Shown here: one piece after another, positions 3,610 to 34,231 of the stretch
How positions within the stretch are numbered: the stretch's first letter is position 1
How the letters are laid out: each line of letters begins with the position of its first letter
Source: Candidatus Latescibacterota bacterium
Lineage (GTDB): Bacteria; Krumholzibacteriota; Krumholzibacteriia; WVZY01
Length of the DNA: 64,000 nt
Reading direction: 5' to 3'
Assembly: GCA_020352495.1 (NCBI GenBank)
Contig: CP070677.1
Coordinates: 1,975,418-2,039,417, forward strand
The notes under the pieces: generated by a model
Database searches by the model: none
What the model was told of the DNA's origin: nothing
What the model saw: the letters and a program-made list of their open reading frames with translations, nothing else
Translations under genes and position numbers: made by a program

Positions 3610-3809
3610 AAATGCTGAGTTTAGAAGAACTCCGGGAGGAGCTTCCTTGCTACGCTCCGGAGACTGTTCTCCGGGAATTGATTGAAATCCTCGCTCCGGA
3701 GGGAGGGGATCAAGCTCGCTCGATTGCGATCCAGGATCTCCGGGCGGCTTTAAAGCGAGTCGAGCGTCGGCTTTTTTGCGAAGAATGGAGGGGGGGCGAA
3801 GATGCCTGA
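3606..3809 (+). CDS. Small hypothetical protein
   Basis: The ORF is 67 aa. Its start overlaps the upstream stop as ATGA. Confidence 0.35.
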   Translation: MKMLSLEELREELPCYAPETVLRELIEILAPEGGDQARSIAIQDLRAALKRVERRLFCEEWRGGEDA

Positions 3810-4899
3810 TTATCAAACACCGAAGGTCTCCGTCGTCTTGGGCGTACGGAATGAATATCCCGTTATCCTCGGGACGATGATGAGCGTCGTCGAGGAGCTC
3901 GAGTTTTGGGGATACCCATGGGAGATCATCGTCGTCGACAATCTCTCGACGGACAATACGGCGGACATCCTTGAGGACAAGTTCCGGCGTTGGGTACGCC
4001 ATGGGCTCCTCAAGGTTATTCGTTGGAACGATCGGCCGGCAAACGTTACCGTGCGGAACGTGGGGGCTCGAAAGGCGACGGGCGATGTTGTCTTCCTCGG
4101 GGACGGGCATCTCTCGATCAAGATCGGGACGTTTCACGGCATGATTCAAGGATGGCTAAAGCGAGGCGGGCTTTGGCATTCGGCGATTCATATTTGGGGG
4201 GATACGTCGAACATCCGGTGTTACGGCTATGATTTGAAGCTCGAGGAGAGATTTTGGGGAAATCTCTCGAGGGGGATCCCTGATGAAGTCTTCGAGGATC
4301 CGAAGAAGAAGACGAATCCGAGGCCGTACCGAGTACCGATGGCTTCGCATTGTTGCCTCATGGCCGGCCGGGAAGAGTACCTCGATTTTCGCGGATATTG
4401 CGAGAATTTTCGGTGTTACGGCGGCGGGGAGCCTTATCTTGATCTTCTTTGGTGGATCTTTGGGAAAGAGGTTTGGCTTTATCCTCAAGGCTTGATTCGC
4501 CATGCGTTCGGCGTCAACGCGCGCTGGGAGACGGCTCCGAAGGACAAGAAGACGCGGAACAAGGTTCATCGACGAGATGGCGTCCAAACCCAAGACCTCA
4601 AGGAGGGGGACGAGTATCTTCGTTATTCGCGCGGCTACAATTGGACGAATGAGCAATTCCATTACAATTTTATGTTAAGTGCTTACTGCATAGGCGGTTA
4701 CGCATGGCTTAGGAAGCGTTATGAGGCGTATTGGGAGATGCGGAAAGGGAATTCCCGGTATCTCGAAGATTTGAAGCAACTCCGGCGGGAGGTTCTTCAT
4801 GAAGGGGCGGAGACGCGGGCTTTTATCGAGAGCCGGCAAGTCATGACCCTCGACGACCTCCTCGAAAAAAAGCCTTGGGAAAACTTCGCCGACCTCTGA
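3802..4899 (+). CDS. Glycosyltransferase family 2 (GT-A fold)
   Basis: The N-terminus 'VSVVLGVRNEYPVILGTMMSVVEE...EIIVVDNLSTDNTADIL' matches the canonical GT2 signature, including a DxD-like 'LGDGH'. Confidence 0.75.
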   Translation: MPDYQTPKVSVVLGVRNEYPVILGTMMSVVEELEFWGYPWEIIVVDNLSTDNTADILEDKFRRWVRHGLLKVIRWNDRPANVTVRNVGARKATGDVVFLGDGHLSIKIGTFHGMIQGWLKRGGLWHSAIHIWGDTSNIRCYGYDLKLEERFWGNLSRGIPDEVFEDPKKKTNPRPYRVPMASHCCLMAGREEYLDFRGYCENFRCYGGGEPYLDLLWWIFGKEVWLYPQGLIRHAFGVNARWETAPKDKKTRNKVHRRDGVQTQDLKEGDEYLRYSRGYNWTNEQFHYNFMLSAYCIGGYAWLRKRYEAYWEMRKGNSRYLEDLKQLRREVLHEGAETRAFIESRQVMTLDDLLEKKPWENFADL

Positions 4900-10872: not shown

Positions 10873-10884
10873 AGGAACGAGCCA

Positions 10885-11238: not shown

Positions 11239-11241
11239 AAG

Positions 11242-11634: not shown

Positions 11635-11637
11635 GCC

Positions 11638-13672: not shown

Positions 13673-14102
13673 ACTCGAGGGGTTTACCGAGCAATTTCAG
13701 GATTATATCGTCGCAAACACTGATTTTACGCCGACTTTGGTTGTCGGGACGAACTTCATCATCGGGAATATTCTTGATGTTCAAGACCTCGAGCAGAGGT
13801 TAACTTCAAAAATCCTCTGTACTCTATTCGACGAGGGAGGTAATCTAATAGGAAGCGGGCGACGGACTCGCCAAGAGAGATCTTTTCGCTTTGTTTTCAA
13901 AGGAGATTACGCCGCGGAGGCGGTCAACCACGGTTTTCGACTCCTCGCATGGCTTCAAAACCATCGGGTCTTTCGGACCTCGGAGTTTCAAGCATGGTGG
14001 GCGCGGGCCGATAAACTCCCGAGCGTAATCGTTCGCGGAAAGGGGGGAGCAACTCTTGCCGATTTCGTTGTCTCCTTAAACGTTTGGTTTCGGACGGAAT
14101 GA
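13665..14102 (+). CDS. Hypothetical structural protein
   Basis: RBS GGAGGGAGG. The ORF is 145 aa. Confidence 0.45.
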   Translation: MLKLEGFTEQFQDYIVANTDFTPTLVVGTNFIIGNILDVQDLEQRLTSKILCTLFDEGGNLIGSGRRTRQERSFRFVFKGDYAAEAVNHGFRLLAWLQNHRVFRTSEFQAWWARADKLPSVIVRGKGGATLADFVVSLNVWFRTE

Positions 14103-14121
14103 GTCTGCCCAATAAGAAGGA

Positions 14122-14916: not shown

Positions 14917-14966
14917 CGCGGGAGGAGTTTGCTCGCTCCTCCTTGGCGTTTAGTTGAGGAGGCTTT

Positions 14967-15404
14967 ATGTCGAAGATGGTCCGCCATGCGGAGTACGAGC
15001 TAACCGGGGATGGCGATTCGAAAACGACCGTCCGCATCAAGAAATGGTCGGTGGCGAAGTTCTTCCTGGTTTTTAAGACTCTTGGCGCGGTCTTGGAGGA
15101 GGCGCTAAAGGGGGCCGGTTCTATAAGCGAAGTTGAGCTCGTTTCGAAGGTCATTTCGACCTTGATCGATTCGGAGCAAGAGGCGATCAAGATTATTCAG
15201 TTGTCGGTCGAGTCTCCGGAGTTGACTCCGGAAGCGATCGGCGAATGGTATCCCGAGGATTTTCTCGCGGTCTTGAATGCTATCGCTGAACTCAACGTTA
15301 CCGAGGATTTTCTAAAAAACTTCCGAAGGCTCTTCGCGACCGTTATGGCTCAGAAGGATGCGGTCAAGGAGGGCGGGAAGAAGTCGGAACCGACCGAACA
15401 ATAA
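14967..15404 (+). CDS. Putative tail assembly chaperone
   Basis: An acidic 145-aa protein between the major tail protein and the tape measure protein. A noncoding gap of about 380 nt follows, where a frameshift extension could be expected. Confidence 0.4.
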   Translation: MSKMVRHAEYELTGDGDSKTTVRIKKWSVAKFFLVFKTLGAVLEEALKGAGSISEVELVSKVISTLIDSEQEAIKIIQLSVESPELTPEAIGEWYPEDFLAVLNAIAELNVTEDFLKNFRRLFATVMAQKDAVKEGGKKSEPTEQ

Positions 15405-18700: not shown

Positions 18701-19560
18701 CGGAAGACTTTGAGAACGCGATGGAGACTCTCCGCGACGAGGTTCAGCGGACGGCGGACGAGATGAAGCTATTAGCGACGCCGGAAGACGAGCGTCGGAT
18801 TGCCGAGGTTACGCTCGAGCTCGAAGAAATGCGGGAGGAGCTTCTTCGCAACGCTCAAGCAATGCTCGCTCATGCGGAGGCCGCGGGAACGGATAAAGAG
18901 CGCCTCGAGGAGCTCAAGGCGCAAGTTCAGGCGTTGATCGCGGCTTTCGACGCTCAAGCGGCCGAGCTCGTCGTAAGCGTCAAGCTTTCCGAGGATACGA
19001 AGAAGGCGGAGAAAGAATCGAAGGCGGCGGCGGAGGCCGTTGGACAAGTCTTCGAGAACGCGATCGGGGGGGCGCTTACGAACGCGCTCCGGAAGGGCGA
19101 AAGCGTCGGGAAGCAATGGTCGGAAGTCTTGGCGAATTTCTTCGCCGACGCGATGGAAAACGCCATCAAGCAGCTTGGCAAGTTCATAACGTCGCAACTT
19201 TCAGGAGTTTTCAAAAGTCTCGGAATCGGCGAGGGAGTCGGCGGTATGCTTACCGGCGTCCTCGGGGTTGCGGGGTTGATTTACAATAGCATCCGGAGCC
19301 GGGGGACGACGACCGTCGAGGATTTCTCGAGCGCGGTGAACTCCTCCGAGGCGGTGAGGGGCGTTGTCGCGGGTCCTTCTAACGTCGCGATTTCTAAGGT
19401 CGGCGATTCGCTCAAGCAAGCGCTCAGGACGTCTGAGATCCTCCTCGAGCGCATAGCGATCGCCGTTGAGACAGGGGGAGGGGTCGGGGCCGGTCCCTCC
19501 GGAGGAGGCGATTTGAGCGGGAATGCGGCTCCGCTCCTTTCGACGAGCACGGCGATTTAA
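15787..19560 (+). CDS. Tail tape measure protein
   Basis: The ORF is 1257 aa. It has an N-terminal hydrophobic block, then a long predicted coiled coil that is Ala/Glu/Leu/Lys-rich, and ends in a Gly-rich tail. The position matches. Confidence 0.8.
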   Translation: MAGTFEVGSILARLKLDDSAWVRGIGEAIDDAKVAGRKIKEFLKKGEKLVLDNRGFKTSLGAARTLVNVFVKGAKAAFATVGPALKKSVQVPLAAIRATLKALTFGARSAGRALKAAFRGVGNVLRRLRRFAMSFQGALAGIGLAFSGFSLIQRARDVEVLERAFQNLAASVGGVADSFLGKLRNAVRGTVSDLDLMRTTNNAVLLGVVKSEDEFSELAAIARRLGQAVGRDTVDAINDLSIGIGRQSRLILDNLGLIVKISEATETYATQLGKNVNNLTDAERRQAFFNAAMEAGRKKVKELGPDVRSITDSWGYFTAQISNTINTFARAFVGGGIFESIATFLDRNSKKISAFANFVSRVFSSVIKELTGIFAGLTKATGIEEFLAEATRLVVDGITFMLDNAAKLLLIGIRTIFSNFSVVALKLVLAVLAQIGVSIIGKIREIINSAVKFVLDQLIIVGSKIPLLNKILGIDDPKKVRTALEANRQVAEEEMKRIAAFIKSQNEEIEAIVSDTIVEVGVELKAVAEDLAEVWSKPTMTSSQNKFVKAVEGSLERIGEAFKRMKLDIADPFADFTTLRVQRELIKVGNAFTKIVQLRQKVIAIAPELISEDDLAESGARLKKFEGLIGSLSEAFTKLKSAPDEVQDELKDSFLEIFAKVQEALQENSREVERFAATVTGRMEDIGDIEKPEKSIVGIGDAILHAAEQITGANPKIAELTKRLEEVREVSRSLPKVGDLINEALRPTFFPLEEFNKLISPFVVGGERFKAIRLEVETAGLTEAEKELVKFDDIFRSILDQLSPEARKKLEETRAALAKMLDQREGAKRMEEAEKALKQFDQQLEQVQDNVNQERLGDLAVQLDVLGRSLREALISVPVERADEVRNKFRQMAGALGEAELVRFTSRLLDLEQGLEDVGKTDLEVKLQGLAREFDTFRIAIERASGLELPEASRLLKEFGRNVVDFQALLVTEDFENAMETLRDEVQRTADEMKLLATPEDERRIAEVTLELEEMREELLRNAQAMLAHAEAAGTDKERLEELKAQVQALIAAFDAQAAELVVSVKLSEDTKKAEKESKAAAEAVGQVFENAIGGALTNALRKGESVGKQWSEVLANFFADAMENAIKQLGKFITSQLSGVFKSLGIGEGVGGMLTGVLGVAGLIYNSIRSRGTTTVEDFSSAVNSSEAVRGVVAGPSNVAISKVGDSLKQALRTSEILLERIAIAVETGGGVGAGPSGGGDLSGNAAPLLSTSTAI

Positions 19561-21716: not shown

Positions 21717-23387
21717 ATGGTTGAGAAGAGTTTACAGCAAGGCAACCCGACGCTCGACAAGATGTCCGCGCGACTGCATCTCGCGGGAGCCGGGGAGCTT
21801 GGACCGATCCTCAAGGGCCTCGGCGGAACGATTACCCTTACGCTCGGTCCGGACGAGGATCTCGTCTATGTCCGCATCCATTCCGATGTCGGGAGCTTCA
21901 ATAATCTTCTCTCGGGGACTTTTACTTCCCTCGACGGCGGTCGTCGGGAATGGTCGACTGATATTGTCTACGGTACCGATACCGCCTTCGGTCTTACCGG
22001 CGGGCGCGCGGCGCGGAATTATCTCGAATGGCAAATTCGAAAGCTCGAAGTTCCGAATGTCGTCTCGGAGCCCGACGATCTCGATACGCCGCTCGATCGA
22101 GCGTTCTTTGATTCTACGCGCTCATATTCTTTGGAAGTCGTCACAGCGCTTAACGACGGAGAATTCGAGGGACCCGTTGGGGCAGCCTTTCGTGATTCCA
22201 CGAAAGAATTATACGTCCTCGCCGAGTCCGGTCATATCAAAGTAGTCAACCGGGCTGGGATCGCAACCCGTGCGAGTAACATTTCCCTCCCTTCTTCTCC
22301 CTTTCGGGTCCCTGTTGATATCGAATACCTCGGATCGGATCGCTTTGCAATATTGAATGCGGGGGATACCGACTATCCCCCATCGATCGTTCTTTTTCAC
22401 ATTCGAGAAGACGAGGAAGAACTTCTCGACGATTTCAAAACGTACTTACTCTCGGATGTTCTCGAGACCGGCGGCTCCGTTCGTGGTCTTTGTTACGATC
22501 CCTGGCGCGAGAAGTTCTATGTCGGAACGGAATCAACCGCTACCGGGGAGGGCGGCCTTTACGAGGTGGATCTAACTCGAGACAATACGGACGGAGCTAT
22601 TACCGCGGATCTTCTTTTTGATTGGGCAGATGTAATCGTTTCAACGGATGGTGTGGGAGCCGGAGCCCTCCTCGGCGGCCTCTACTATTCGCGAGGACTT
22701 GCCGCCGGCGCGGCAAACGACTCGATCTTCGGTCTTTTTCATGCGCCGGCCGGCGGCGGTCCCGCCGATCAACGGGTCATCGTTCAGTTCGACATCCAAT
22801 CCGGAGCGCCGATCTCCGAATTCTTTTACAACATGGAAGGAGATTTCCGTGGCGCGGTTTGGAGCGAGTATAACGAAGACCTTTTTTTCTTCGCGACAAC
22901 GCCGGGCATCAATTTTTGGCGGTACTCTCACACCGGGTATACCGATACGCAAACCTTCTCGAGGTCGTTTTACGTCAAGGATGTTCCGTACGCCGGCGGG
23001 CTCTATCTTCACAACCAAGAAGCACAGCTCGGCGAGGCTATCGTTCATATAAACAAAGACGATCCGAATCGGTTCGCGAGGGATGCGACCTTCGGGATCA
23101 ATGTTCTTCCGGTTTTTAACGATGAGTTTTTTACGCAACACGAATATCGCGGGAATCGCTTCGCGCAGACTCTAAGGAATTGGGGAGGAGCGGCGACGGT
23201 TGAATTTTGGGTCGAGGGCGTTAAGGTCATTTCGGAGATCGATATCGCCGACCTTGATGGTTACTATTGGCCGACTCCTGATTACGGATTACATAACGTC
23301 TTTGTCCGTCTTCGCGCCGATACCGGCTCTCCTTATGCTGTAGACATTCCCGGGTATATTCGATTCCGGCAATTCGATTGCCCGTAA
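21717..23387 (+). CDS. Hypothetical tail/baseplate protein with a propeller-like domain
   Basis: The ORF is 556 aa. 'YDPWREKFYVGTESTATGEGGLYEVDL' parallels 'FDPNTGKFYVINQADTQSDVGVWEVDT' in the 6361 protein. Confidence 0.5.
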   Translation: MVEKSLQQGNPTLDKMSARLHLAGAGELGPILKGLGGTITLTLGPDEDLVYVRIHSDVGSFNNLLSGTFTSLDGGRREWSTDIVYGTDTAFGLTGGRAARNYLEWQIRKLEVPNVVSEPDDLDTPLDRAFFDSTRSYSLEVVTALNDGEFEGPVGAAFRDSTKELYVLAESGHIKVVNRAGIATRASNISLPSSPFRVPVDIEYLGSDRFAILNAGDTDYPPSIVLFHIREDEEELLDDFKTYLLSDVLETGGSVRGLCYDPWREKFYVGTESTATGEGGLYEVDLTRDNTDGAITADLLFDWADVIVSTDGVGAGALLGGLYYSRGLAAGAANDSIFGLFHAPAGGGPADQRVIVQFDIQSGAPISEFFYNMEGDFRGAVWSEYNEDLFFFATTPGINFWRYSHTGYTDTQTFSRSFYVKDVPYAGGLYLHNQEAQLGEAIVHINKDDPNRFARDATFGINVLPVFNDEFFTQHEYRGNRFAQTLRNWGGAATVEFWVEGVKVISEIDIADLDGYYWPTPDYGLHNVFVRLRADTGSPYAVDIPGYIRFRQFDCP

Positions 23388-23397
23388 GGAGGAGGCA

Positions 23398-23787
23398 ATG
23401 CGGGAGAGAAGCGCGAAGCTCCATCATGGGGGGAGCGACAGAGATAATCCGATCCTCGCGGAGCAACGGCTTACGATCGTTCTCAACAAGCAGGATGCCG
23501 ATCAAGCCCTCAAGAAGGTTTGGGTCTCCGTCGCCGGCGCGGTCTTCTTCGACCTTACGTCGCTCGCCGTTGAGACCGACACGACGGTTACCGTCGACGT
23601 TATCGCGGGGACACATTTACAATCCGGCTTTCCCGCGATCGAGAATACGATCCATTTTACGACGACGCCGCACGTCCATTCGAAGCAGGCGGTATGGGTC
23701 GCGAGTCAACCCGAAGCAATGATAACCCTCGACGGATATAACGCGAACGACCCGTCGCAACCGTTGATTTATCCGATTTACGTTTAA
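23398..23787 (+). CDS. Hypothetical protein
   Basis: RBS AAGGAGGAGG. The ORF is 129 aa. Confidence 0.45.
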   Translation: MRERSAKLHHGGSDRDNPILAEQRLTIVLNKQDADQALKKVWVSVAGAVFFDLTSLAVETDTTVTVDVIAGTHLQSGFPAIENTIHFTTTPHVHSKQAVWVASQPEAMITLDGYNANDPSQPLIYPIYV

Positions 23788-26700
23788 TGGCTACGACTTT
23801 ACCCGGACCCGCTCCGACGACAACGACTCCGGTTCTTACGACGATCAATACAACGTCGCAATCAAGCTCCGCTTCGACCTCGATTACGTCTTCTCTTTCG
23901 ACCTCAGTCTCGTCTTCCGCTTCGACGTCGACAACGACGAATAATCCAGAAGTCGTCAATTCGATCGAGTCCGACCTTTGGTCTACCGATCTTCAGGCTT
24001 GGGAACTCGTCGAGCTCGGCGAGGAGACTCTGGGATGGTACACGGTCGATATCGAGGACCTTCAAACCGTCGATGTCTATGCTTTCTCGCCTCCCGGCGT
24101 TCCCGGTAAGCTCAATTGGGAGACCGGCGACTGGAAAGTTCGGCTCAAGGTTTGGAAGGTTACCATCGGAAGTACCGCCGATATTGAGGACGTACAATGT
24201 CAGGTAAGGTTGGCAAGAGTCTCGGCCGATGGGCAAACCTTGGTTCAGGGGGAATTCCTCTCCGATCCGCCGTCGAGCTATAACCTCAACATTACCGACC
24301 TCTTCATTTATCGATGGAGTAACCTTAGTTGGACGGGCGGGCTTAAGACTCAGAATGCGTCCGATCGCATTCGGATCAAATTTTCGTATACGCTTCTCGA
24401 TTTTACCGGCGGTAGTATCGGCGTTGAAATCCTTAGCGGAAGATTCAATACCGCCGGCGTTGACAAGCCGATCGAGATCAATACCGGATATACGACTTCT
24501 CTTTCGACCTCGCAAAGTTCGTCGCTCTCGACCTCGCAAAGCACGGTTGCTTCGACGAGCGGAAGTACGACGGCAAGCTCGAGCGTAAGTTCGACGCAAT
24601 CCACGACGCAATCAACGAGCGCGAGTTCTTCCTTTACGACGACGGCCTCGACTCCTTCGACGACGCAAAATCCCGAGGTTCTCGGAAATCCCGAGCCAGA
24701 TGATGTTGATTTTGGGGAAACGGATGACGCCGTTCGAACGCTTTCGGCTCTTGGGCGAGAAAAAAACGACTTTTTTCAGCTTATTGTTCCCGGCTTCGAT
24801 GCCCAGAATCTTTACGGCGTTACGCCGGCGAACTATCCCGGTTCGTACGATTGGGAAAGCGGGAATTGGAAAGTTCGCGTTCGGATCTTTTCCGCGGCCG
24901 GCGGCGGAGATCTCGACGATATAGCTCTCAAGATTTTTCTTTCTCGAGTAAGCGATTCCGGGACACAACTCCTTGGAGAATTTCAGTCTGATAGTCCGAC
25001 GCAACAGCTTGGGCTCGAGGCTCAAAAAACATACTTCTTCCGATGGTCGAACGTTATATGGAGCGAAAGCGATGCAACCGGCTCGCTGGCGCAAACCGAC
25101 CGACTTTTAATTCGTTACGAGTTTCAGAACCTCAACGCCTCGAGTCTTACTCTGTCGCTCGCCATTGGGGAGTACGAGCATTGGGGCGTTGATAAGCCGC
25201 TCGTTCATCAAACGTATACCTCGGCCTCGACTTCGCAAAGCTCGACGGCGAGCTCCTCCCTGAGTTCTTCGCTTTCGTCGACGGCGAGTTCTTCGCTATC
25301 GTCGACGGCGAGTTCCTCTCTGAGTTCTTCGCTTTCGTCGACGGCGAGCACGTCAGGCTCAACCTCCGCATCCTCGTCGACGACAACTCAAAATCCGGAA
25401 CTTCTTGTCGGCACTTTAGACGAGAGCACGGTTCTCGGCGCTACCGACGATGCGGTATACGAGATCGTCGATTATGGTCTTAAGTCGGGAACCTTTATCG
25501 TTCTCGCCGTTGAGAAATGGGAGGTCTCGAATCTTTACGGCATTACGGACGTCGGGCATCCGGGTAAGCATGATTGGGAGACGGGCGACTGGAAGGTTCG
25601 CTTTGCGATCTCCAATACTCTCGAAGGAGACGCGGCCGACCTTAGCATGAAGGTTTACCTTTCAAGGGTTTCCGAAGATGGCTCGGTCGTCAAATACGGT
25701 CCGATCCAATCCGAGGACCCTGTTCAGGTAAACTCTCTCGAGGTTCAACACACCTATATTTTTCGTTGGACGGATGTCGCTTGGGATGATACCGAAGCGG
25801 ACAATCCTTTTTCCTCGCGCGATAGGATTCTCATAACTTATGAGTTTCAGAACCTTAGCGCGGATTTGATTCGCTTTCGGTCAATCGGTCTTTGGTCGAC
25901 GACGGGCATCGATAAGCCGATCTCCGCGGTTACCTCGACGTCGCAATCGACGAGCCTTTCGACGACGGCGAGTTCTTCTCAATCCTCCTCGTTATCGTCT
26001 TCTCAGTCGAGCTCGCTTTCTTCATCGCAAAGTACGACGGCGAGTACGACGGCGAGCACGACGGCTTCGACGAGTCTTTCGAGCTCGCTATCGACCTCGG
26101 CGACGACGACAGCCTCGACGCCTTCGACGACGAATAATCCCGAGGTCGTCAATCAATACGCTTCGAACTTGCAACTCGGCGATACCGACGATGTTACTTT
26201 GGAGATCGTCGATTTCGGGGAAGAGATCTCCGGATATATCTCGGTAACGGTCGAGGGCTATTCCGACGCAAGTCTTTACTGTGTTACGAGGACGGGACAT
26301 CCGAATAAGGTCTATTGGGAGGATGGGAGTTGGAAGACCCGTTATCGGGTCGCCGACTCTTTTAACGGAAACCTCGACGATGTAGTCCTCAAGGGATACA
26401 TCGCAAGGATTACCGACGACGGGACTATCATCTCGGGGCCGCATCCAGGGGAGCCGGTTCAATATTCCGGCCTCGAAGTTTTTGATACTTACGTTTTCCG
26501 TTGGCCGAACTTCGTCTGGTCGGAGACGGATGCTTCGCAAGCGTTCTCGAAGAGCGACCGGATTCTCGTCATTTTTGAGTTTCACAATACCGGCGCGGAT
26601 TGGATTCGGATCCGTACGATTTCGAATTGGGCGCACACCGGAATTGACAAGCCGGTCATTCCGATTTCGACCTCACAAAGCACGAGCGCCTCGACTTCGC

Positions 26701-29700
26701 AATCCTCGACGCAATCGACGACGGCGAGTTCGACACAATCGACGACGGCCTCCTCGAGTCTCTCGACATCACAGAGCACGACGGCAAGCTCGAGCCTTTC
26801 TTCGACGCAATCGACGACGGCTTCAACGAGCCAATCGACGACCGCGAGCTCCTCCCTTTCCTCGTCGCTATCGTCGACGGCGAGCACCTCGGCAAGTTCT
26901 TCGCTTTCGACCTCGGCGACGACGACAGCCTCGACGCCTTCGACGACGAATAACCCCGAGGTCGTCAATCAATACGTCTCCGCCGATCTTCATTTCGGCG
27001 CTACCGATGATGTAACGCGAGAGATCGTCAATCTCGGCGGAGAGTCTCCCGGCTTTATTCCGATAATTATCGAGGGCTATTCCGACGCAAGCCTTTATTG
27101 CGTTACGAGGTCAGGGCATCCGAATAAGGTTGATTGGGAGGCGGGGAGTTGGAAGATCCGCTATCGGATCTCCGACTCTTGGAATGGGGATCTTGGCGAT
27201 GTCGTTCTCAAGGGATACATCGCGAGGGTTACCGACGACGGGACTATTATCTCGGGGCCTTGGGCGGGAGATCCTGTCCAATACGCCGGCCTCGAGACGT
27301 ACGACACCTACATCTTCCGTTGGCCGAACTTCGTCTGGTCGGAGACGGATGCTTCGCAGGCGTTCTCGAAGAGCGATCGAATTCTCGTTATCTTCGAGTT
27401 CCATAATACCGGCGCGGATTGGATCCGGATTCGTACGATCTCGAATTGGACGCACGTCGGAATCGACAAGCCGGTTATTCCGATTTCGACCTCGCAAAGC
27501 ACGAGCGCTTCGACGAGCGTTTCGACAACGGCAAGCTCCTCACTGAGCTCGAGCCTTTCTTCGACGCAATCAACGACCGCGAGTACGACGGCGAGCTCGA
27601 GCCTTTCGACTTCTCAATCAACAACGGCAAGCTCGAGCCTTTCTTCGACAGCTTCGACGAGTCAATCGACGACGCAAAGTACGACCGCGAGCACGACGGC
27701 AAGTTCTTCGCTATCGACCTCGGCAACGACGACGGCCTCGACTCCATCGACGACAAATAATCCCGAGGTCGTCAATCAATACGCTTCGAACTTACAGCTC
27801 GGCGATACCGACGATGTTACTTTGGAGATCGTCGATCTTGGGGAAGAAGTCGCTGGATATATTCAAGTAACGATTGAGGGTTATTCCGAGGCAAGCCTTT
27901 ATTGTGTTACGAGGACGGGACATCCGAATAAGGTCTATTGGGAGGATGGGAGTTGGAAGACCCGTTATCGAGTCGTCGACTCTTACAACGGTGATTTAAG
28001 CGATGTCGTTCTCAAGGGATACATCGCGAGAATTACCGACGACGGGACTATTATCTCAGGGCCTCATTCCGGTGAGCCTATCCAATACGCCGGCCTCGAG
28101 ACGTACGACACCTACATCTTCCGTTGGCCGAACTTCGTCTGGTCGGAGACGGATGCTTCGCAGGCGTTCTCGAAGAGCGATCGAATTCTCGTTATCTTCG
28201 AGTTTTCAAATACCGGCGCGGATTGGATCCGGATCCGTACGATTTCGAATTGGGCGCATACCGGAATCGATAAGCCGGTCGTTCCGATTTCGACCTCGCA
28301 AAGTACGAGCGCCTCGACGAGCGCCTCGACGACGCAATCGACGACGGCGAGTTCTTCCCTTTCTTCGACGGCGAGCACCTCGGCGAGTACGACTCAAAGC
28401 ACGACACGATCAACGAGCCAATCGACGAGCCTCTCGGTTTCTTTCTCGACGAGTCAATCAAGCTCGCTTTCAAGCTCGCAAAGCTCGACGCAATCGACGA
28501 CGGCAAGCTCGAGTCTCTCAACCTCTCAAAGCACGACGGCTTCCTCGAGCCTCTCAACGTCACAATCGACGACGGCGAGCTCGAGCCTTTCGACTTCTCA
28601 AAGTACGACCGCGAGCTCCTCCCTCTCTTCCTCGCTTTCGACCTCTCAAAGTACGACGGCAAGCTCGAGCCTCTCAACGTCACAATCGACGACGGCGAGC
28701 TCGAGCCTTTCGACCTCTCAAAGTACGACGGCGAGCTCCTCCCTCTCGAGCTCTCAAAGTACGACGGCAAGCTCGAGCCTTTCTTCGACGGCGAGCACCT
28801 CGCTGACGAGCTCGCAATCAACGACGGCGAGTTCGTCGGCTTCGACTCCCTCGACGACAATCAATCCCGAGATCCTCGTTGGCGTCTTCTCCGATCTTGC
28901 TCTCGGGGATACGGACGACAATACATATCAGATTGTCGACCTTGGAGATGAGGGCGGACATTTCGTCGTCCATTACGTCGAAGGGTACGAAGAGTCGAAC
29001 GTTTACGGTGTTACGGCGGCGGGACATCCGGGTAAGACGAATTGGGAGCGCGGGGCTTGGAAGGTCCGCTTTCAAGTTTCGAATACGCTTGAGGGAGACG
29101 TCGCCGATCTTAGTCTCCAGGTTTACATCTCGAGGGTTACCTCGACGGGCGTTCTTTGGGATGGTCCGTTCCTCGCTGATAGTCCGACAATAGTCAACGG
29201 GCTCGAAGTTCAAAAGGTTTATGTTTTCCGGTGGAACGATGTCTCGTTTTTAAGCGGAGAGACTTCCGACCGGATCATGATCCAGTATCGGTTCCAAAAT
29301 ACGAGCTCGACGCGCGTCGGCATAAGAAGTATCGGCGTCTTTCCGTCTCTTGGAATCGATAAGCCGGTCTCCGGCGTAACGTCGGCGAGTACATCGGTTT
29401 CGACGACACAATCGACAACGGCGAGCACCTCGGCGAGCTCGAGCCTCTCAACGTCGCAATCGACGACGGCGAGCTCCTCTCTTTCGACCTCTCAAAGTAC
29501 GACGGCAAGCTCGAGTCTTTCTTCGACACAATCGACGACCGCAAGCTCGAGCCTTTCAACGTCACAATCGACAACGGCTTCGACAAGCCTTTCTTCGACG
29601 CAATCAACGACGGCCTCGACGAGTCAATCGACGACGGCGAGCTCGTCGCTTTCTTCGACGCAATCGACGACGGCGAGCACCTCCCAAAGCTCGACAATGA

Positions 29701-32609
29701 GTACGTCGGCAAGCTCGAGCCAATCGACGACCGCGAGCTCCTCTCTTTCGACCTCCCAGTCGACAACGGCTTCGACGAGCCAATCGACGACAAACAATCC
29801 CGAGCTTCTTCATGGCGTTCTTTCCGATCTCGACTTGGGCTCTCCCTTCGACGTTACTTACGCCGTTGTCGAGCTCGGCGATGAATCCGGCGGGCTTATT
29901 ACCATTGATGTTCCCGGTTATACCGAGGCGAACATCTTCGGCGTTACGCCGACGTCCTTTCCTCTCAAGTTGGTTTGGGAGTCGGGCTTTTGGAAGGCGC
30001 GCGTTCAGCTCTTCTCGGAAGACCCAGCGGATAGTGCCGAGAACCTCGTCCTTAAGCTTTACATCTCGAGAATAACCTCAACCGGAACGGAGATCATCGG
30101 ACCGTTCCTCGCCGACGACCCGACGCAAGTCAACGGCTTGGAAGTCGGGTATCAGTATGTTTTTACTTGGGATAACCTTTCTTGGTCGGAGACGGACGCA
30201 TCGCAAGCGTTGAGTTCAACCGACCGGATCATGGTTACGTACGAGTTCCAGAACCTTTCCGGAACGAATATAACGATTCGCCTCGCCGGCGCTTGGCACA
30301 CAACGGGGATCGATAAACCGATTGAGCCGGGAACGAGCTTCTCGACCTCGGCTTCGACCTCTCTTTCGACGACGGCTTCGACGAGCCTTTCTTCGACGCA
30401 AAGTACGACGGCAAGCACGACGGCGAGTTCTTCGCTTTCTTCGACGGCAAGCACCTCGGCGAGCTCGAGTCTTTCAACTTCGCAATCGACGACGGCGAGC
30501 TCGTCTCTTTCAACTTCGCAAAGTACGACCGCGAGCTCCTCCCTATCGACGACGCAAAGTACGACGAAGAGTACCTCGCAAAGCTCCTCGTTGAGTACCT
30601 CGGCGAGTTCCTCGTTGAGTACCTCAGCCTCGACCTCCGAGTCGAGTACGACATCGGCAACAACGACGGCGAGTACCTCGCAAAGCTCCTCGCTGAGTAC
30701 CTCGGCAAGTTCTTCGCTATCATCGACGGCGAGCTCGTCTCTCTCTTCGACGCAATCGACGACGGCCTCCTCGAGCCTCTCGACATCACAGAGCACGACC
30801 GCGAGTTCGTCGCTTTCGAGTTCCCAAAGCACGACGGCCTCCTCGAGCCTCTCCTCGACGGCGAGCACCTCGGCAAGCTCAAGCCTTTCGACATCTCAAA
30901 GCACGGTCGCGAGTACCTCGGGAAGTACGACGGCGAGCTCGTCGCTTTCTTCGACGCAATCGACGACGGCGAGCACCTCTCAAAGTACGACGGCGAGCTC
31001 CTCCCTTTCTTCGACGCAATCGACGACCGCGAGCTCCTCGCTTTCAACGACGCAATCGACGACCGCGAGCACGAGCCAATCGACGACGCAAAGTACGACC
31101 GCGAGTACGAGCCAGTCGACGACGGCCTCCTCGAGTCTCTCAACGTCGCAATCGACAACGGCGAGCTCGTCTCTTTCAACGACGCAATCGACGACGGCGA
31201 GTACGAGTCAATCGACGACGGCCTCCTCGAGTCTCTCAACGTCGCAATCGACGACGGCCTCCTCGAGTCTCTCAACGTCACAATCGACGACGGCCTCCTC
31301 GAGTCTTTCAACGTCGCAATCGACGACGGCCTCCTCGAGTCTCTCAACGTCACAATCGACGACGGCCTCCTCGAGTCTCTCAACGACGCAAAGTACGACC
31401 GCAAGTACGACACAAAGCACGACCGCGAGTACGAGCCAATCGACGACGGCGAGCTCGTCCCTTTCGAGCTCTCAAAGTACGACCGCAAGCTCCTCGCTCT
31501 CAACGTCGGCAAGCACGACGCAATCATACACCTCCTCGCAATCGTCGACGGCTTCGACGAGCCAAAGCAGCTCCCTAAGTACAACCGCAAGCTCGAGCCT
31601 CTCAACAACGGCGAGCACATCGGGGACGACGACTGCATCATCTTCGGCGAGTTCAAGCGCCTCCTCCTGTGCATCGTCGTCCCTCTCTACTTCCCAATCG
31701 TCGACCGCGAGCTCGAGTCTTTCTTCGACGCAATCGACGACGGCGAGTACCTCCCAAAGCACGACGACGACCGTATCAACCTCCGCTTCGACGAGTCAAT
31801 CGTTTACCTCGTCGCAATCGTCGACCCGTTCCACGTCTCAATCCACGAGCATGAGTACGAGCATGAGCACGACAAGATCAACGACAACAACGGCTCCGAT
31901 TACGCCTCCGCCGTTAACGAGCCCGGCGAAGCTTTTGCTTCATATCAAGATCGTTCCGCGTTATAACGACGAGGAGCTCGTCCAACATGCGGATGATCAG
32001 ATCAACACCGGAACGACGATCACCGGCGAGCCGCATGAGGTTCCCGGCTTCCCGATTGGAAACGCGGTCGAGTCGTACCAGGGCTTTTTGACTTGCGAAA
32101 TTTTCTGGGAGACGATCGAGACCGATACCGACGGCGAGCCCGATACGGACCTCACCGGAGACGGCTTGATTGTTTACGCAGCGGAGGCGCTTTGCGAGAC
32201 GCAAAAGATCATCGAAATTGATCCGGCTCCGTCGGGCTTTCTCCATTTCGTTTTCCGGCTTCGTACGGCTTGGGGCTCGAGCGATTACATCGATATCGAT
32301 CAATATGTCTACATTGCATCGCACGCTGCCTGCGGCGCTCTTGGCGGCGATCCGACGCGGACGAGTTCTTCGGTCGCAACGCCGGCGACGACTTATCCGA
32401 CGGTAACCTCGGTATTGACGACGACGGGCTCGACGAGTCTTACGACTTCCGTTACGACCTCGATTACAACGTCTTTCTCGAGTACGCGATCGACCTCCGG
32501 CTCGACGTCGAAAAGCACCTCGGGATCGACTTCGATTTCGAGCTCGGCTTCGACTTCGGTTTCTCGATCGGGCTCGACTTCGGCATCAACCCCATGGATT
32601 GAGTTTTAA
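23787..32609 (+). CDS. Giant tail-fibre-like protein: 8 tandem copies of an approximately 190-aa domain separated by Ser/Thr-rich linkers, plus a distinct C-terminal domain
   Basis: The ORF is 2940 aa. Each copy begins 'TT(N/Q)NPE' (nt 23940, 24668, 25389, 26134, 26949, 27756, 28862, 29797) and ends 'GIDKP'. An approximately 530-aa pure S/T linker spans 30330-31900. The C-terminal domain is 'IKIVPRYNDEELVQH...'. Confidence 0.8.
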   Translation: MATTLPGPAPTTTTPVLTTINTTSQSSSASTSITSSLSTSVSSSASTSTTTNNPEVVNSIESDLWSTDLQAWELVELGEETLGWYTVDIEDLQTVDVYAFSPPGVPGKLNWETGDWKVRLKVWKVTIGSTADIEDVQCQVRLARVSADGQTLVQGEFLSDPPSSYNLNITDLFIYRWSNLSWTGGLKTQNASDRIRIKFSYTLLDFTGGSIGVEILSGRFNTAGVDKPIEINTGYTTSLSTSQSSSLSTSQSTVASTSGSTTASSSVSSTQSTTQSTSASSSFTTTASTPSTTQNPEVLGNPEPDDVDFGETDDAVRTLSALGREKNDFFQLIVPGFDAQNLYGVTPANYPGSYDWESGNWKVRVRIFSAAGGGDLDDIALKIFLSRVSDSGTQLLGEFQSDSPTQQLGLEAQKTYFFRWSNVIWSESDATGSLAQTDRLLIRYEFQNLNASSLTLSLAIGEYEHWGVDKPLVHQTYTSASTSQSSTASSSLSSSLSSTASSSLSSTASSSLSSSLSSTASTSGSTSASSSTTTQNPELLVGTLDESTVLGATDDAVYEIVDYGLKSGTFIVLAVEKWEVSNLYGITDVGHPGKHDWETGDWKVRFAISNTLEGDAADLSMKVYLSRVSEDGSVVKYGPIQSEDPVQVNSLEVQHTYIFRWTDVAWDDTEADNPFSSRDRILITYEFQNLSADLIRFRSIGLWSTTGIDKPISAVTSTSQSTSLSTTASSSQSSSLSSSQSSSLSSSQSTTASTTASTTASTSLSSSLSTSATTTASTPSTTNNPEVVNQYASNLQLGDTDDVTLEIVDFGEEISGYISVTVEGYSDASLYCVTRTGHPNKVYWEDGSWKTRYRVADSFNGNLDDVVLKGYIARITDDGTIISGPHPGEPVQYSGLEVFDTYVFRWPNFVWSETDASQAFSKSDRILVIFEFHNTGADWIRIRTISNWAHTGIDKPVIPISTSQSTSASTSQSSTQSTTASSTQSTTASSSLSTSQSTTASSSLSSTQSTTASTSQSTTASSSLSSSLSSTASTSASSSLSTSATTTASTPSTTNNPEVVNQYVSADLHFGATDDVTREIVNLGGESPGFIPIIIEGYSDASLYCVTRSGHPNKVDWEAGSWKIRYRISDSWNGDLGDVVLKGYIARVTDDGTIISGPWAGDPVQYAGLETYDTYIFRWPNFVWSETDASQAFSKSDRILVIFEFHNTGADWIRIRTISNWTHVGIDKPVIPISTSQSTSASTSVSTTASSSLSSSLSSTQSTTASTTASSSLSTSQSTTASSSLSSTASTSQSTTQSTTASTTASSSLSTSATTTASTPSTTNNPEVVNQYASNLQLGDTDDVTLEIVDLGEEVAGYIQVTIEGYSEASLYCVTRTGHPNKVYWEDGSWKTRYRVVDSYNGDLSDVVLKGYIARITDDGTIISGPHSGEPIQYAGLETYDTYIFRWPNFVWSETDASQAFSKSDRILVIFEFSNTGADWIRIRTISNWAHTGIDKPVVPISTSQSTSASTSASTTQSTTASSSLSSTASTSASTTQSTTRSTSQSTSLSVSFSTSQSSSLSSSQSSTQSTTASSSLSTSQSTTASSSLSTSQSTTASSSLSTSQSTTASSSLSSSLSTSQSTTASSSLSTSQSTTASSSLSTSQSTTASSSLSSSQSTTASSSLSSTASTSLTSSQSTTASSSASTPSTTINPEILVGVFSDLALGDTDDNTYQIVDLGDEGGHFVVHYVEGYEESNVYGVTAAGHPGKTNWERGAWKVRFQVSNTLEGDVADLSLQVYISRVTSTGVLWDGPFLADSPTIVNGLEVQKVYVFRWNDVSFLSGETSDRIMIQYRFQNTSSTRVGIRSIGVFPSLGIDKPVSGVTSASTSVSTTQSTTASTSASSSLSTSQSTTASSSLSTSQSTTASSSLSSTQSTTASSSLSTSQSTTASTSLSSTQSTTASTSQSTTASSSLSSTQSTTASTSQSSTMSTSASSSQSTTASSSLSTSQSTTASTSQSTTNNPELLHGVLSDLDLGSPFDVTYAVVELGDESGGLITIDVPGYTEANIFGVTPTSFPLKLVWESGFWKARVQLFSEDPADSAENLVLKLYISRITSTGTEIIGPFLADDPTQVNGLEVGYQYVFTWDNLSWSETDASQALSSTDRIMVTYEFQNLSGTNITIRLAGAWHTTGIDKPIEPGTSFSTSASTSLSTTASTSLSSTQSTTASTTASSSLSSTASTSASSSLSTSQSTTASSSLSTSQSTTASSSLSTTQSTTKSTSQSSSLSTSASSSLSTSASTSESSTTSATTTASTSQSSSLSTSASSSLSSTASSSLSSTQSTTASSSLSTSQSTTASSSLSSSQSTTASSSLSSTASTSASSSLSTSQSTVASTSGSTTASSSLSSTQSTTASTSQSTTASSSLSSTQSTTASSSLSTTQSTTASTSQSTTQSTTASTSQSTTASSSLSTSQSTTASSSLSTTQSTTASTSQSTTASSSLSTSQSTTASSSLSTSQSTTASSSLSTSQSTTASSSLSTSQSTTASSSLSTTQSTTASTTQSTTASTSQSTTASSSLSSSQSTTASSSLSTSASTTQSYTSSQSSTASTSQSSSLSTTASSSLSTTASTSGTTTASSSASSSASSCASSSLSTSQSSTASSSLSSTQSTTASTSQSTTTTVSTSASTSQSFTSSQSSTRSTSQSTSMSTSMSTTRSTTTTAPITPPPLTSPAKLLLHIKIVPRYNDEELVQHADDQINTGTTITGEPHEVPGFPIGNAVESYQGFLTCEIFWETIETDTDGEPDTDLTGDGLIVYAAEALCETQKIIEIDPAPSGFLHFVFRLRTAWGSSDYIDIDQYVYIASHAACGALGGDPTRTSSSVATPATTYPTVTSVLTTTGSTSLTTSVTTSITTSFSSTRSTSGSTSKSTSGSTSISSSASTSVSRSGSTSASTPWIEF
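26134..28310 (+). repeat. Three near-identical direct repeats of about 560 bp (domain copies 4-6 of the fibre gene)
   Basis: For example, 26281-26460 is about 90% identical to 27901-28080, and 27301-27400 is about 100% identical to 28101-28200. Confidence 0.8.
30330..31900 (+). repeat. Coding low-complexity Ser/Thr-rich repeat of about 1.6 kb
   Basis: (STSQSTTASSSLS)n with no interruption. Confidence 0.85.
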
Positions 32610-32611
32610 TC

Positions 32612-34231
32612 ATGGATAGCTCTCGAAGAAAATACTTCGGCGGAGAACTTGACCTCGTTCATCAGCAACCGACGAATCGGGCTCCGGCGCATCGAGTCGT
32701 CATTTGGAATCCAAACCGGACGAGCATTCACGAGGTTTGCTTGGGCGAAGCGGAGAGCCCGGAGTATGATGTCACGGATTGGGTTTCGTCGATCTCTTAT
32801 TCGGAAAATATTACTTGGGAGAATAACGACGATGCGATTGCGTCGAATTGCGTTCTTTCGGTGATATACGACGAGGACGCGCTTCCGATTGAGATGACCG
32901 AGAAAACATGGCTCGACGGAACTCCGGTTCGGATATATCAGGGCGATCGCCGGATAAAGAAGGAGCTATGGATTCCGATCTTTACCGGCGTCGTCCGCGG
33001 CGTTCCCTCGACGACGGAGTATTCTCGGTCGGAGACCAAGGCGCGGATGCTCAACGTAACGTGCGTCGATCGCGCCGAAAAATACTTAAACTCGGTCGTT
33101 ACGGCGCGGGCTTACGAGACGGAGACCGACGTTGGAAAGGCGGCGGTCGAAACGGCGATCGAATGGATGTATCTCGATCGCCGCGAGATCATGATCGGTT
33201 ATCAAGATTACGCGATCGCGCATACTCAAAGTCAGCTCGTCGATGTCGAGGTTCTCAAGGGGGTCTTTCAAATTTTGTTTACGGTCGGCAAAAAGCCGAA
33301 GTTCAACGGAGAGGGCTTTCTCGTTGCGGCGGATACCGATCTTGATAAGCCGCCGATACGGCGATACCAAAACAAAGACCATATCGTCGAGATTCGCCGC
33401 GAGCAAATCTTGAGCTCGGTCAATAACTCGGTTCGCCTCCTCGGCATTGATGACGAGCTTACGGCGGTCGTTGAAAGTACGAAGCGGCTCGCGCATGGGA
33501 ATATTACGAGCGGCTTCTTCGAGGATGAAGTACGGCATCGGGTTTATTTCTCGGAGAACGATGGTAAGGAGAACCAAGGTCGGCGCGCGAAGAATACTTA
33601 TCTCGCGAATGAACGAATAAGCTCGATCGGCGCTTTTTTCGGCGAAGGTTTGCGATGGGCTCCCAACATCGAAGATGATGGCTTCACGGTTTTTTGGGGT
33701 CAGGTTGTTTTCAATACCGGATATGATCCGGCGGTTCGCGCGACGCTTACCGGACTTTGGGCGGCATCGCAGGCGATAATCCTTCTTGGTTGGCTCGGCG
33801 TCGTTCCTGATTGGATTGTCGCGATTGCTCAAGCGACGGGGACGGCGGCGATGATCGGGATGATCCTTAGCATGACCGAGGTCGGCCATGTTTATTGGGA
33901 GGTTCATGGGCAACCCTTTCAGAACGTTTATCAACAGCTTTGCTCAACGGCGCAACTCTCGGGGATCCTCACTGAGGATATCAAGGAGATTGAACTTCGG
34001 AACGATTGGCTTTACGACATCGGATACATGCGAGCTCGAGCGAAGGAGCTCCTTCGCCGCGAGCTTATCAAGGGATGGTCTTATCAAATTCACATGATCG
34101 ATGATCCGTTCATCGAAGTTGATGACATTATCGAGATCGAGTCGATGAAGTTCTATATTACCTCGATCCGGAAGAACTTGCTTCGACCGGGAGACGGTAA
34201 AATGATCTGTACGGCTTGGAGGATTGCGTAA
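32612..34231 (+). CDS. Hypothetical protein (baseplate/tail-associated position)
   Basis: The ORF is 539 aa. Confidence 0.5.
   Translation: MDSSRRKYFGGELDLVHQQPTNRAPAHRVVIWNPNRTSIHEVCLGEAESPEYDVTDWVSSISYSENITWENNDDAIASNCVLSVIYDEDALPIEMTEKTWLDGTPVRIYQGDRRIKKELWIPIFTGVVRGVPSTTEYSRSETKARMLNVTCVDRAEKYLNSVVTARAYETETDVGKAAVETAIEWMYLDRREIMIGYQDYAIAHTQSQLVDVEVLKGVFQILFTVGKKPKFNGEGFLVAADTDLDKPPIRRYQNKDHIVEIRREQILSSVNNSVRLLGIDDELTAVVESTKRLAHGNITSGFFEDEVRHRVYFSENDGKENQGRRAKNTYLANERISSIGAFFGEGLRWAPNIEDDGFTVFWGQVVFNTGYDPAVRATLTGLWAASQAIILLGWLGVVPDWIVAIAQATGTAAMIGMILSMTEVGHVYWEVHGQPFQNVYQQLCSTAQLSGILTEDIKEIELRNDWLYDIGYMRARAKELLRRELIKGWSYQIHMIDDPFIEVDDIIEIESMKFYITSIRKNLLRPGDGKMICTAWRIA

Follow-up and report, generated by a model that had tools for sequence, protein, structure and literature searches.

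A putative multivalent adhesin with eight repeat domains on Ser/Thr-rich spacers encoded in the tail module of an uncultured phage

The 64,000-nucleotide stretch analyzed here (the window; positions 1,975,418 to 2,039,417 of contig CP070677.1, assembly GCA_020352495.1) belongs to a metagenome-assembled genome (MAG) recorded at NCBI as "Candidatus Latescibacterota bacterium," from which the host assignment is taken, and contains a single uninterrupted open reading frame (ORF) for a protein of 2940 amino acids (aa). Based on the analysis reported here, this giant protein would be a multivalent adhesin attached to the virion of an uncultured phage or prophage of siphovirus type, acting as a flexible string and not as a rigid trimeric fibre, a reading to which we assign a probability of about 0.55. 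In this model, a conserved C-terminal domain would be the docking module for the tail tip, its probable partner there being encoded by the adjacent ~540-aa gene, eight jelly rolls of the carbohydrate-binding module (CBM) type would extend from that anchor on long uncharged Ser/Thr-rich spacers, and each of them would weakly bind a surface or matrix glycan. The arrangement of eight domains in series, with spacers of 60-535 residues, would make the initial, reversible capture of polysaccharide, from the host envelope or from a matrix, more avid and farther-reaching. Also, unequal recombination between copies would make the array grow or shrink and gene conversion would patch the copies, independently in each phage lineage, with purifying selection keeping every retained copy functional, and the spacers would possibly be O-glycosylated in the cytoplasm by the phage's own glycosyltransferases.

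Repeat domains and linkers of the giant protein

A first-pass annotation of the window described the frame at 23787-32609 as a 2940-aa protein with eight tandem homologous domains of ~190 aa, joined by Ser/Thr linkers of differing length. ORF analysis of the window recovers the same uninterrupted frame, and a profile built from the eight domains finds exactly those eight in the window, with E values of 1e-67 to 1e-87 per copy, a repeat structure far beyond chance. The domains are shorter than described, with 170-179 aa each bounded by NPE...G[VI]DKP, and 22 alignment columns are invariant across the eight copies. Outside the set formed by copies 4-6 (R4-R6), the copies share 30-54% protein identity. 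The linkers do differ in length, as described, and the parts of the gene are distributed as follows.

23787..32609, + strand: whole gene, modular protein of 2940 aa
23787..23942, + strand: N-terminal leader, 52 aa, Ser/Thr/Pro-rich, read from the sequence as having neither a structured domain nor a signal peptide
23943..24476, + strand: R1, aa 53-230, the most divergent copy, 30-35% identical to the others
24477..24668, + strand: linker 1, 64 aa, 69% Ser+Thr
24669..25205, + strand: R2, aa 295-473, repeat domain
25206..25391, + strand: linker 2, 62 aa
25392..25925, + strand: R3, aa 536-713, repeat domain
25926..26135, + strand: linker 3, 70 aa
26136..26660, + strand: R4, aa 784-958, copy used for the AlphaFold2 model
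26661..26951, + strand: linker 4, 97 aa
26952..27479, + strand: R5, aa 1056-1231, 80-82% protein and 83-85% DNA identity to R4 and R6
27277..27400, + strand: exact tract of 124 nt in R5, equal to 28081-28204 in R6, putative gene conversion, longest exact repeat in the gene
27480..27758, + strand: linker 5, 93 aa
27759..28283, + strand: R6, aa 1325-1499, 90% protein and 87% DNA identity to R4
28284..28862, + strand: linker 6, 193 aa, 36-nt (12-aa) periodicity
28863..29372, + strand: R7, aa 1693-1862, repeat domain
29373..29795, + strand: linker 7, 141 aa
29796..30326, + strand: R8, aa 2004-2180, repeat domain
30327..31931, + strand: linker 8, 535 aa, 73% Ser+Thr, 5 charged residues, ~21 STSQSTTASSSL-like 12-mers
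31932..32363, + strand: conserved C-terminal domain, ~145 aa (aa 2716-2859), HIKIVPRYND...QHADDQI...ESYQGF...FRLRT...DQYVY
32364..32606, + strand: C-terminal tail, 81 aa, Ser/Thr-rich, not conserved and absent in the orthologue of contig L003

The AlphaFold2 model of R4 (pLDDT 78, pTM 0.81) is all-beta and globular with ten strands, and the predicted fold is a galactose-binding-domain-like jelly roll of the CBM kind. Of the immunoglobulin (Ig)-like or beta-sandwich fold expected beforehand, the beta-sandwich is therefore present in the model, however as a jelly roll and not as an Ig domain. Among predicted viral structures, the Foldseek matches of the model are fibre-type proteins from uncultured tailed phages (E 1e-9 to 1e-6), of the collagen-repeat and S74-peptidase kinds. 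The modelled fold suggests that the repeat domains would bind sugars; by sequence membership they fall outside the curated CBM families. Moreover, the repeat domain matches no Pfam-A family at E ≤0.1 except for a 13-bit noise match, and no PHROG; tblastn against 50,697 phage records and scans of IMG/VR viral contigs with the repeat domain or with a 556-aa neighbor gave nothing, and its profile finds only noise among PDB sequences (eL14, E 0.08). In an exhaustive profile search of 1.84 billion representative proteins, only 48 are found at E <1e-3 and four at E <1e-10. Separately, an intradomain isopeptide lock linking the invariant N in NPE to the K in DKP was considered. The corresponding motifs in the first five copies of the L003 orthologue are NP[QMAL] and GVD[ST]P, and the lock was rejected for this lack of conservation of E and K.

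Copies 4-6 had been described as ~90-100% identical in DNA and as products of a very recent duplication. However, such identity is restricted to blocks, 100% being reached only there, and over their full length these copies show 82-87% DNA and 80-90% protein identity. Their synonymous divergence (dS) is 0.44-0.72 and the ratio of non-synonymous to synonymous divergence (dN/dS) is 0.11-0.25 by the Nei-Gojobori method, older copy pairs having dN/dS values of 0.16-0.36. Copies 4-6 are old duplicates, each held under purifying selection, and a dS of about half a substitution per synonymous site excludes both a very recent duplication and a duplication by the assembler. Recombination between copies, also proposed earlier, is supported by the 124-nt tract shared by R5 and R6. 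With a proportion of synonymous differences (pS) of ~0.34, about 10 such differences are expected over the ~30 synonymous sites of this tract, and the chance of finding none is ~5e-6 according to our own arithmetic. Gene conversion or recombination between copies would be the best explanation for such a 124-nt identity amid ~15% divergence.

The linkers, together with the leader and the tail, account for 1388 of the 2940 residues (47%), with ~73% Ser+Thr and 10 charged residues. A rigid fibre is doubtful for a chain in which 47% of the residues are uncharged Ser/Thr-rich low-complexity spacer, and the spacers are probably extended. Tandem Repeats Finder reports a 36-nt (12-aa) linker periodicity with imperfect copies. 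The exact peptide STSQSTTASSSL occurs 24 times in 22 different DNA versions, with a mean nucleotide identity of 73%, and 74 units within four substitutions of the consensus give a pS of 0.63, near saturation. In this case, the units were picked by consensus similarity and TCN/AGY switches of Ser count as non-synonymous, the linker dN/dS being set aside as unreliable and only pS used. The linkers are not recent slippage products, and the exact conservation of the STSQSTTASSSL peptide while its codons drift suggests that the linker sequence matters beyond its composition. Different units are observed in the relatives, STTRSSSV in the 1707-aa orthologue P0003 and STTASSS(L/V/Y)S-like in L003, and the linker motif of the giant protein, as STSQSTT(A/R)S, also joins the domains of a second large phage protein of the window, encoded at 6361-10872.

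The C-terminal domain, the orthologues and the phage context

The C-terminal part had been taken as a unique domain of ~300 aa, possibly for receptor binding. A unique domain is present, however it spans ~145 aa, with a small beta-sandwich as its core, and is followed by the 81-aa Ser/Thr-rich tail. It is the only module common to all orthologues (42-64% identity), and the orthologue N-terminal parts are unrelated to each other. Receptor binding does not agree with this pattern of one conserved module with everything N-terminal to it swapped. Moreover, the gene carrying the domain lies directly upstream of a ~540-aa gene at every locus examined, the encoded proteins ranging in size from 142 to at least 3461 aa. 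As a rule, a phage fibre attaches to the virion by the part that its relatives conserve and recognizes the cell by the part that varies. Application of this rule to the conserved C-terminal domain would place the anchor at the C-terminus and the array outward, the domain being more likely a virion anchor than a receptor binder. The ~540-aa product would probably be its docking partner. In the window, this gene is:

32612..34231, + strand: ~540-aa neighbor, 539 aa, 59-67% identical in close relatives, the best-conserved gene of the block

In a large protein search, at least 98 clusters were obtained for the ~540-aa family, none with a name or a Pfam domain. Against PDB sequences, profiles of the 252-aa, 314-aa and 539-aa neighbors gave nothing useful, and in the 50,697 phage records no match to the 539-aa or the 556-aa protein was obtained by tblastn.

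The third-best match of the exhaustive repeat-domain search, P0003, is a syntenic orthologue present in two contigs, one of 104.5 kb from ENA (L001) and one of 51 kb from JGI (L002). A comparison of L001 with the window shows that every gene from the major tail protein through the helicase is collinear, with 31-63% identity. P0003 has one repeat domain between STTRSSSV-type linkers and a C-terminal domain 41% identical to that of the window protein (E 2e-29). Its N-terminal ~790 aa are unrelated to the window protein and have no Pfam match, part of this region resembling the SdiA-regulated-type domain of neighboring proteins. A search with the C-terminal domain gave six more proteins with 50-64% identity, and their alignment (A2) retrieved 2 viral and 21 metagenomic loci, in which the repeat content was determined by profile scan. 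The copy numbers outside the window are as follows.

L003, 90-kb IMG/VR contig: orthologue of at least 3461 aa, 9 copies, 5 + 4 around an unrelated 600-aa insert
L004, 108.7-kb contig: 1948-aa ORF, 3 copies
L001: 1707 aa, 1 copy
L009: 1396 aa, 3 copies, one before the C-terminal domain and two after it
L006 and L007: contigs ending inside the ORF, at least 2 copies, both after the C-terminal domain
L011 and L014: C-terminal domain alone in a 123-142-aa ORF, after a 1368-aa ORF, 0 copies in the ORF of the domain
L020: 486 aa, C-terminal domain at the end, 0 copies
L031: 475 aa, C-terminal domain at the end, 0 copies

The array length, which had been suspected to vary, thus varies between lineages, with 0, 1, 3, 8 or 9 copies in the orthologues. 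A neighbor-joining tree of all domains places window copies 2-8, the nine L003 copies (with sub-clades matching the two blocks of L003) and the L004 and L001 copies in three separate clades. This clustering by phage indicates that the arrays were expanded or homogenized separately in each lineage, and accessory modules appear to have been shuffled between lineages. The L003 insert between copies 5 and 6 (3599-5431, aa 1200-1810, ~600 aa) has no Pfam match and possibly contains a lectin-like and a propeller-like domain, according to a reading of its sequence only. Also, short-read (Logan) contigs of three relatives end in the Ser/Thr region upstream of the ~540-aa gene (L028 1-254, L029 1-659, L030 1-533). 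Such genes are evidently hard to assemble, which may also explain their rarity in databases.

The long ORFs of the window all have + strand orientation and are phage-like, and they include a minor head protein, a neck protein, a major tail protein with an Ig-like domain and the following gene.

15787-19560, + strand: tape measure gene, phrog_3779, E 1e-15

The gene order is tape measure, six ORFs, giant gene, four ORFs, SNF2-type helicase, primase-polymerase and second helicase, which places the giant gene downstream of the tape measure and baseplate genes. The tail module is, judged by its genes, of siphovirus type. The earlier view of the protein as fibre-like is supported to the extent that a modular protein of great length is encoded among phage tail genes, as seen from the tape measure gene and the collinearity with the 104-kb phage contig. 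Neither in DNA nor in protein does any cultured phage resemble this one, with no match among the 50,697 phage records, and neither a host gene nor a tRNA gene is found within the 64-kb window. The close relatives are free-standing viral contigs of 90-108 kb and the window sequence is in a bacterial MAG contig, so that the element would be either an integrated prophage or a chimeric join.

The giant ORF can be read as a gene inside an operon, with translational coupling to both of its neighbors. Its ATG and the stop codon TAA of the preceding ORF overlap (TAATG), the downstream ORF begins 2 nt past the stop of the giant ORF, and promoter-like and terminator-like sites in and around the gene are not above the level of shuffled sequence, the three observations on which this reading is based. 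The upstream gene is:

23398..23787, + strand: conserved gene, 129 aa, 49% identical to a 135-aa gene in L001 and coupled to the giant ORF

The protein begins with MATTLPGPAPTTTT... and ends with ...STPWIEF, and no signal peptide, lipobox or C-terminal sorting/anchor signal is visible on direct reading of its sequence. The absence of such signals fits cytoplasmic assembly into virions.

Regarding its annotation, the giant ORF is represented in the NCBI record by no more than its last 248 codons (UCG53572.1, JSW58_08440), and exact look-ups show that neighboring proteins of the window are NCBI entries (tags JSW58_08385, JSW58_08390 and JSW58_08445). Nine accession numbers separate UCG53572.1 from the upstream 129-aa gene, in the range UCG53562.1 to UCG53573.1. 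Presumably these are ORFs in other frames or on the opposite strand, and none of ten candidate ORFs tried for them was found in the protein collection. The eight domains are absent from public protein sets, since the repeat domain gave no self match either in a word-indexed set of 5.8 billion proteins or in the exhaustive hidden Markov model search of the 1.84 billion representatives. Exact look-ups with the giant protein and with its 539-aa neighbor gave no other assembly, and a 60-nt pattern had no exact match in the GTDB species-representative genomes. Long stop-free ORFs are also observed inside the gene, antisense or in other frames, for example, 30235-31674 (-, 479 aa), 23904-24611 (-) and 28003-28806 (+). 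These were rejected as genes, being by-products of stop-free Ser/Thr codon repeats with none in the protein collection. A negative GC skew at 28-32 kb was likewise rejected as a replication feature; it coincides with the linker-rich part and is attributed to the C-rich Ser/Thr codons of the linkers.

Other large genes of the window show modular products. A 556-aa tail protein (21717-23387, +), encoded two genes upstream of the giant ORF, shares a ~230-aa domain with the N-terminal part of the L001 orthologue of the giant protein (10001-15124; 24% identity, E 8e-11), and its own L001 orthologue (609 aa) has a PF06977 SdiA-regulated match. The second modular protein (6361-10872, +, 1503 aa) has four Ser/Thr linkers of the STSQSTT(A/R)S type and Pfam matches to SdiA-regulated-type PF06977 (633-802) and to a calcineurin-like metallophosphoesterase (1117-1301); by reading of the sequence only, there are apparently four ~50-aa N-terminal repeats and a possible beta-sandwich at ~400-570. 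A counterpart of 1579 aa is at the same place in contig L027. A domain of the type shared by the 556-aa protein and the L001 orthologue seems to recur in several tail proteins of the group. A 252-aa ORF located at a long distance from the tail module (59975-60733, +) has a weak F5/8 type C (discoidin, galactose-binding-like) match just under the Pfam cut-off. Also, a 311-aa ORF (56020-56955, +) matches PHROG 4285, "transposase" (E 8e-36), and in Pfam has only a weak P22 injectosome translocase-like match.

Candidate O-glycosylation of the linkers

Two genes of the window would be relevant for a modification of the spacers.

3802..4899, + strand: GT2, family-2 glycosyltransferase, PF00535 (E 1.6e-14), 72-74% identical in related phage contigs
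35758..36516, + strand: MptE-like protein (Maf/DUF115-type), 252 aa, four genes downstream of the giant ORF in all relatives

The GT2 gene is preceded by a methyltransferase (PF13489, 1389-2051), both being upstream of the 1503-aa protein (cassette 1389-4899). The methyltransferase, the GT2 and a large protein follow in the same order in L004 and L027, with a 72% identical GT2 (L027 2755-7302). Between the first two, the window has a weak MptE-like ORF (2250-3047) and the ORFs of L027 have no Pfam match. This region is possibly a protein-glycosylation cassette. For the MptE-like protein downstream of the giant ORF, counterparts of 250-262 aa with 44-49% identity are found in L001 (18553-19323), L003 (13685-14452) and L004 (9337-10089), and the Pfam scores are 35.0 bits in L001 (cut-off 34.6), 28.6 in L003 and 21.9 in the window.

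Virions of mycobacteriophages can be O-glycosylated, and as expected for an O-glycosylated virion protein, glycosyltransferase genes are present in the same phage genome. Also, Maf proteins O-glycosylate Ser/Thr of flagellin in the cytoplasm (PMC4065374, PMC3426422), and serine-rich repeat adhesins and Ser/Thr-rich disordered regions of streptococcal proteins are O-glycosylated (PMC6973325, PMC11092751). Given that STSQSTTASSSL is kept despite scrambled codons and that the GT2 and MptE-like genes are conserved, O-glycosylation of the linkers is a reasonable hypothesis, in which GT2 would be the candidate linker glycosyltransferase and the MptE-like protein a candidate modifying enzyme. A bolder proposal, which we advance tentatively and hold to be possible, is that the protein would be a mucin-like glycoprotein tentacle. 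In this case, STSQSTTASSSL, which is kept as a peptide despite near-saturated synonymous change and recurs in a second protein of the virion module, would be the recognition unit for cytoplasmic O-glycosyltransferases of the phage (GT2 and/or the Maf/MptE-like protein), and the product would be a stiff, protease-resistant bottle-brush of several hundred nm, anchored at its C-terminus and carrying eight lectin-like domains of an undescribed family. If true, the tentacle would be the first phage tail appendage organized like a mucin or a serine-rich-repeat adhesin, with a polarity opposite to that of classical fibres.

Alternative explanations and comparison with known adhesion systems

Several points weigh against a virion-attached adhesin with glycosylated spacers. 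The location in the virion is inferred from the genes, in a phage lineage with no cultured relative, and the source is a MAG contig, for which chimerism is possible. Moreover, no trimerization element was found in the giant protein, the ~540-aa putative partner has no assigned function and the AlphaFold2 model of R4 was built on an alignment of only eight paralogues. Finally, the MptE-like match of the window is partial and below the Pfam cut-off, and a profile of that protein finds no solved relative.

Among the alternatives, the protein could be a virion appendage of the type of Hoc and bacteriophage adherence to mucus (BAM), adhering to non-host particle, biofilm or algal polysaccharide matrices and keeping the phage near its hosts. 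The anatomy would be the same as in the adhesin explanation, the C-terminal anchoring with outward tandem beta-sandwich domains resembles T4 Hoc, the array is dispensable in some relatives (0 copies) and Latescibacterota have been described as polysaccharide degraders. However, the gene is located in the tail-tip module beside conserved baseplate-type genes and not among head genes, and host and matrix glycan targets are indistinguishable with these data; we regard matrix adherence as an unlikely role, the best placed of the alternatives.

Less likely again is a classical receptor-binding tail fibre, with its N-terminal part on the baseplate, the tandem domains as the shaft and the C-terminal domain as the receptor-binding tip. 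The end of the tail module is the usual place for a receptor-binding protein (RBP) gene, in most known fibres the C-terminus binds the receptor, and the C-terminal domain has the small beta-sandwich core. Nonetheless, the polarity of a classical fibre, with a conserved N-terminus and a variable C-terminus, is reversed here, the C-terminal domain being conserved and the N-terminal parts swapped wholesale (beta-helix-like and propeller-like regions, 0-9 jelly rolls). Moreover, this domain is internal in L006, L007 and L009 and encoded by the separate small ORF in L011 and L014, and the window protein has no structured N-terminal domain. Also, no fibrous or trimeric shaft motif and no match to a Pfam or PHROG fibre family was found in the giant protein, in which the R4 model is globular and the linkers are low-complexity Ser/Thr.

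For a non-virion product of a prophage, such as a cell-surface or secreted adhesin or a host polysaccharide-binding protein acting in lysogenic conversion, the 4.3-Mb bacterial MAG contig could be invoked, and also the fact that CBMs with polyserine linkers are typical of secreted bacterial carbohydrate-active proteins (PMC2386152). However, this is improbable for a protein in whose sequence no export or anchor signal is seen and whose gene is translationally coupled within a tail operon and syntenic in the 90-108-kb IMG/VR viral contigs. The least probable case, an array inflated by repeat mis-assembly, could appeal to the broken short-read contigs L028-L030 and to the public annotation without the full ORF, and yet no two copies or linkers are the same, copies 4-6 are 13-18% divergent in DNA with the dS given above, the frame is open for 8.8 kb with dN/dS well below 1 and a longest exact repeat of 124 nt, and independent assemblies of relatives carry 3 and 9 copies.

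Regarding the adhesin reading, the closest known system in logic is the array of BACON-domain tandem repeats associated with the tail of crAssphage and related gut phages (de Jonge et al. 2019, PMC6949934), the CBM-decorated devices of siphophages also being close. As in crAssphage, a tandem array of putative carbohydrate-binding beta-sandwiches is associated with the tail, a single domain has been arrayed by within-lineage duplication, and the number and configuration of copies are lineage-specific. However, the domain family is unrelated, with no BACON (PF13004/PF19190-type) or other Pfam match, and the BACON copies are packed head to tail, whereas here Ser/Thr spacers of 60-535 aa separate the copies. 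Also, the host phylum and the phage group differ, and the module conserved among orthologues is C-terminal here. Lactococcal and streptococcal siphophages have adhesion devices decorated with CBMs in evolved Dit, Tal and accessory CBM proteins (PMC7533335, PMC9437275, PMC9692632), in which the extra jelly-roll CBMs of tail-tip proteins add avidity for cell-wall polysaccharide and are exchanged between phages. There, each CBM is a single insertion into a Dit, Tal or RBP scaffold whose fold is known, whereas the giant protein has eight copies on one chain with mucin-like spacers and no scaffold of this kind recognizable by Pfam or PHROG.

T4 Hoc is a non-essential, glycan-adhering capsid appendage of ~40 kDa, with three Ig-like domains and no low-complexity linkers. 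It shares with the arrangement proposed here a string of beta-sandwiches outward from a small C-terminal virion-binding domain. The giant protein differs from Hoc in its tail-module gene, in a length ~8 times greater and in having predicted jelly rolls instead of Ig domains. The binding of Hoc to mucin is cited in PMC13248984.

In serine-rich repeat glycoproteins of Gram-positive bacteria, long Ser-rich stalks present binding domains and are O-glycosylated in the cytoplasm by dedicated glycosyltransferases (PMC6973325, PMC7948813). The giant protein is similar in that long Ser-rich repeats flank the putative binding regions (1388 aa, 73% Ser+Thr, 12-aa periodicity). However, it has no aSec signal peptide or LPXTG anchor, no GtfA/B or accessory Sec is found among the neighboring genes, and its unit is the 12-mer STSQSTTASSSL in a phage tail context and not in a cell wall. 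A similar layout is observed in the modular carbohydrate-active proteins with polyserine linkers of marine degraders of the Saccharophagus degradans type (PMC2386152), where jelly-roll CBM-type modules are on long flexible Ser-rich linkers. Unlike the giant protein, which is encoded in a tail operon, these are secreted enzymes with catalytic modules and signal peptides, neither of which it has.

With the O-glycosylation of mycobacteriophage virions and of flagellin by Maf proteins, the system shares conserved MptE-like (Maf-type) and GT2 genes, glycosylation being hypothetical here. O-Glycosylated virion proteins of mycobacteriophages were reportedly described by Freeman et al. in 2023. In those systems, the structural protein is modified in the cytoplasm by enzymes with genes beside or close to its own, and the targets are short C-terminal Ser/Thr stretches or surface loops of flagellin, unlike the 1388 residues of spacer in the giant protein.

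What sets the giant protein apart from known adhesins is the combination of an undescribed domain family, 47% of spacer, a conserved 12-residue unit and an apparent C-terminal anchor. This is an unusual architecture among phage adhesion devices, of lectin-like beads on very long uncharged Ser/Thr spacers, and it adds a domain family that matches neither Pfam nor PHROGs and has few relatives in the proteins searched. Proteins of this type would be systematically under-represented in protein databases, given that annotation is missed, as with the 248 codons called here, and that short-read contigs break inside the gene. Moreover, the syntenic gene with its different copy numbers offers a natural series for the gain of avidity and reach by domain duplication, and it provides a specific case in which a phage may direct the O-glycosylation of one of its tail proteins, in a candidate phylum of Gram-negative bacteria.

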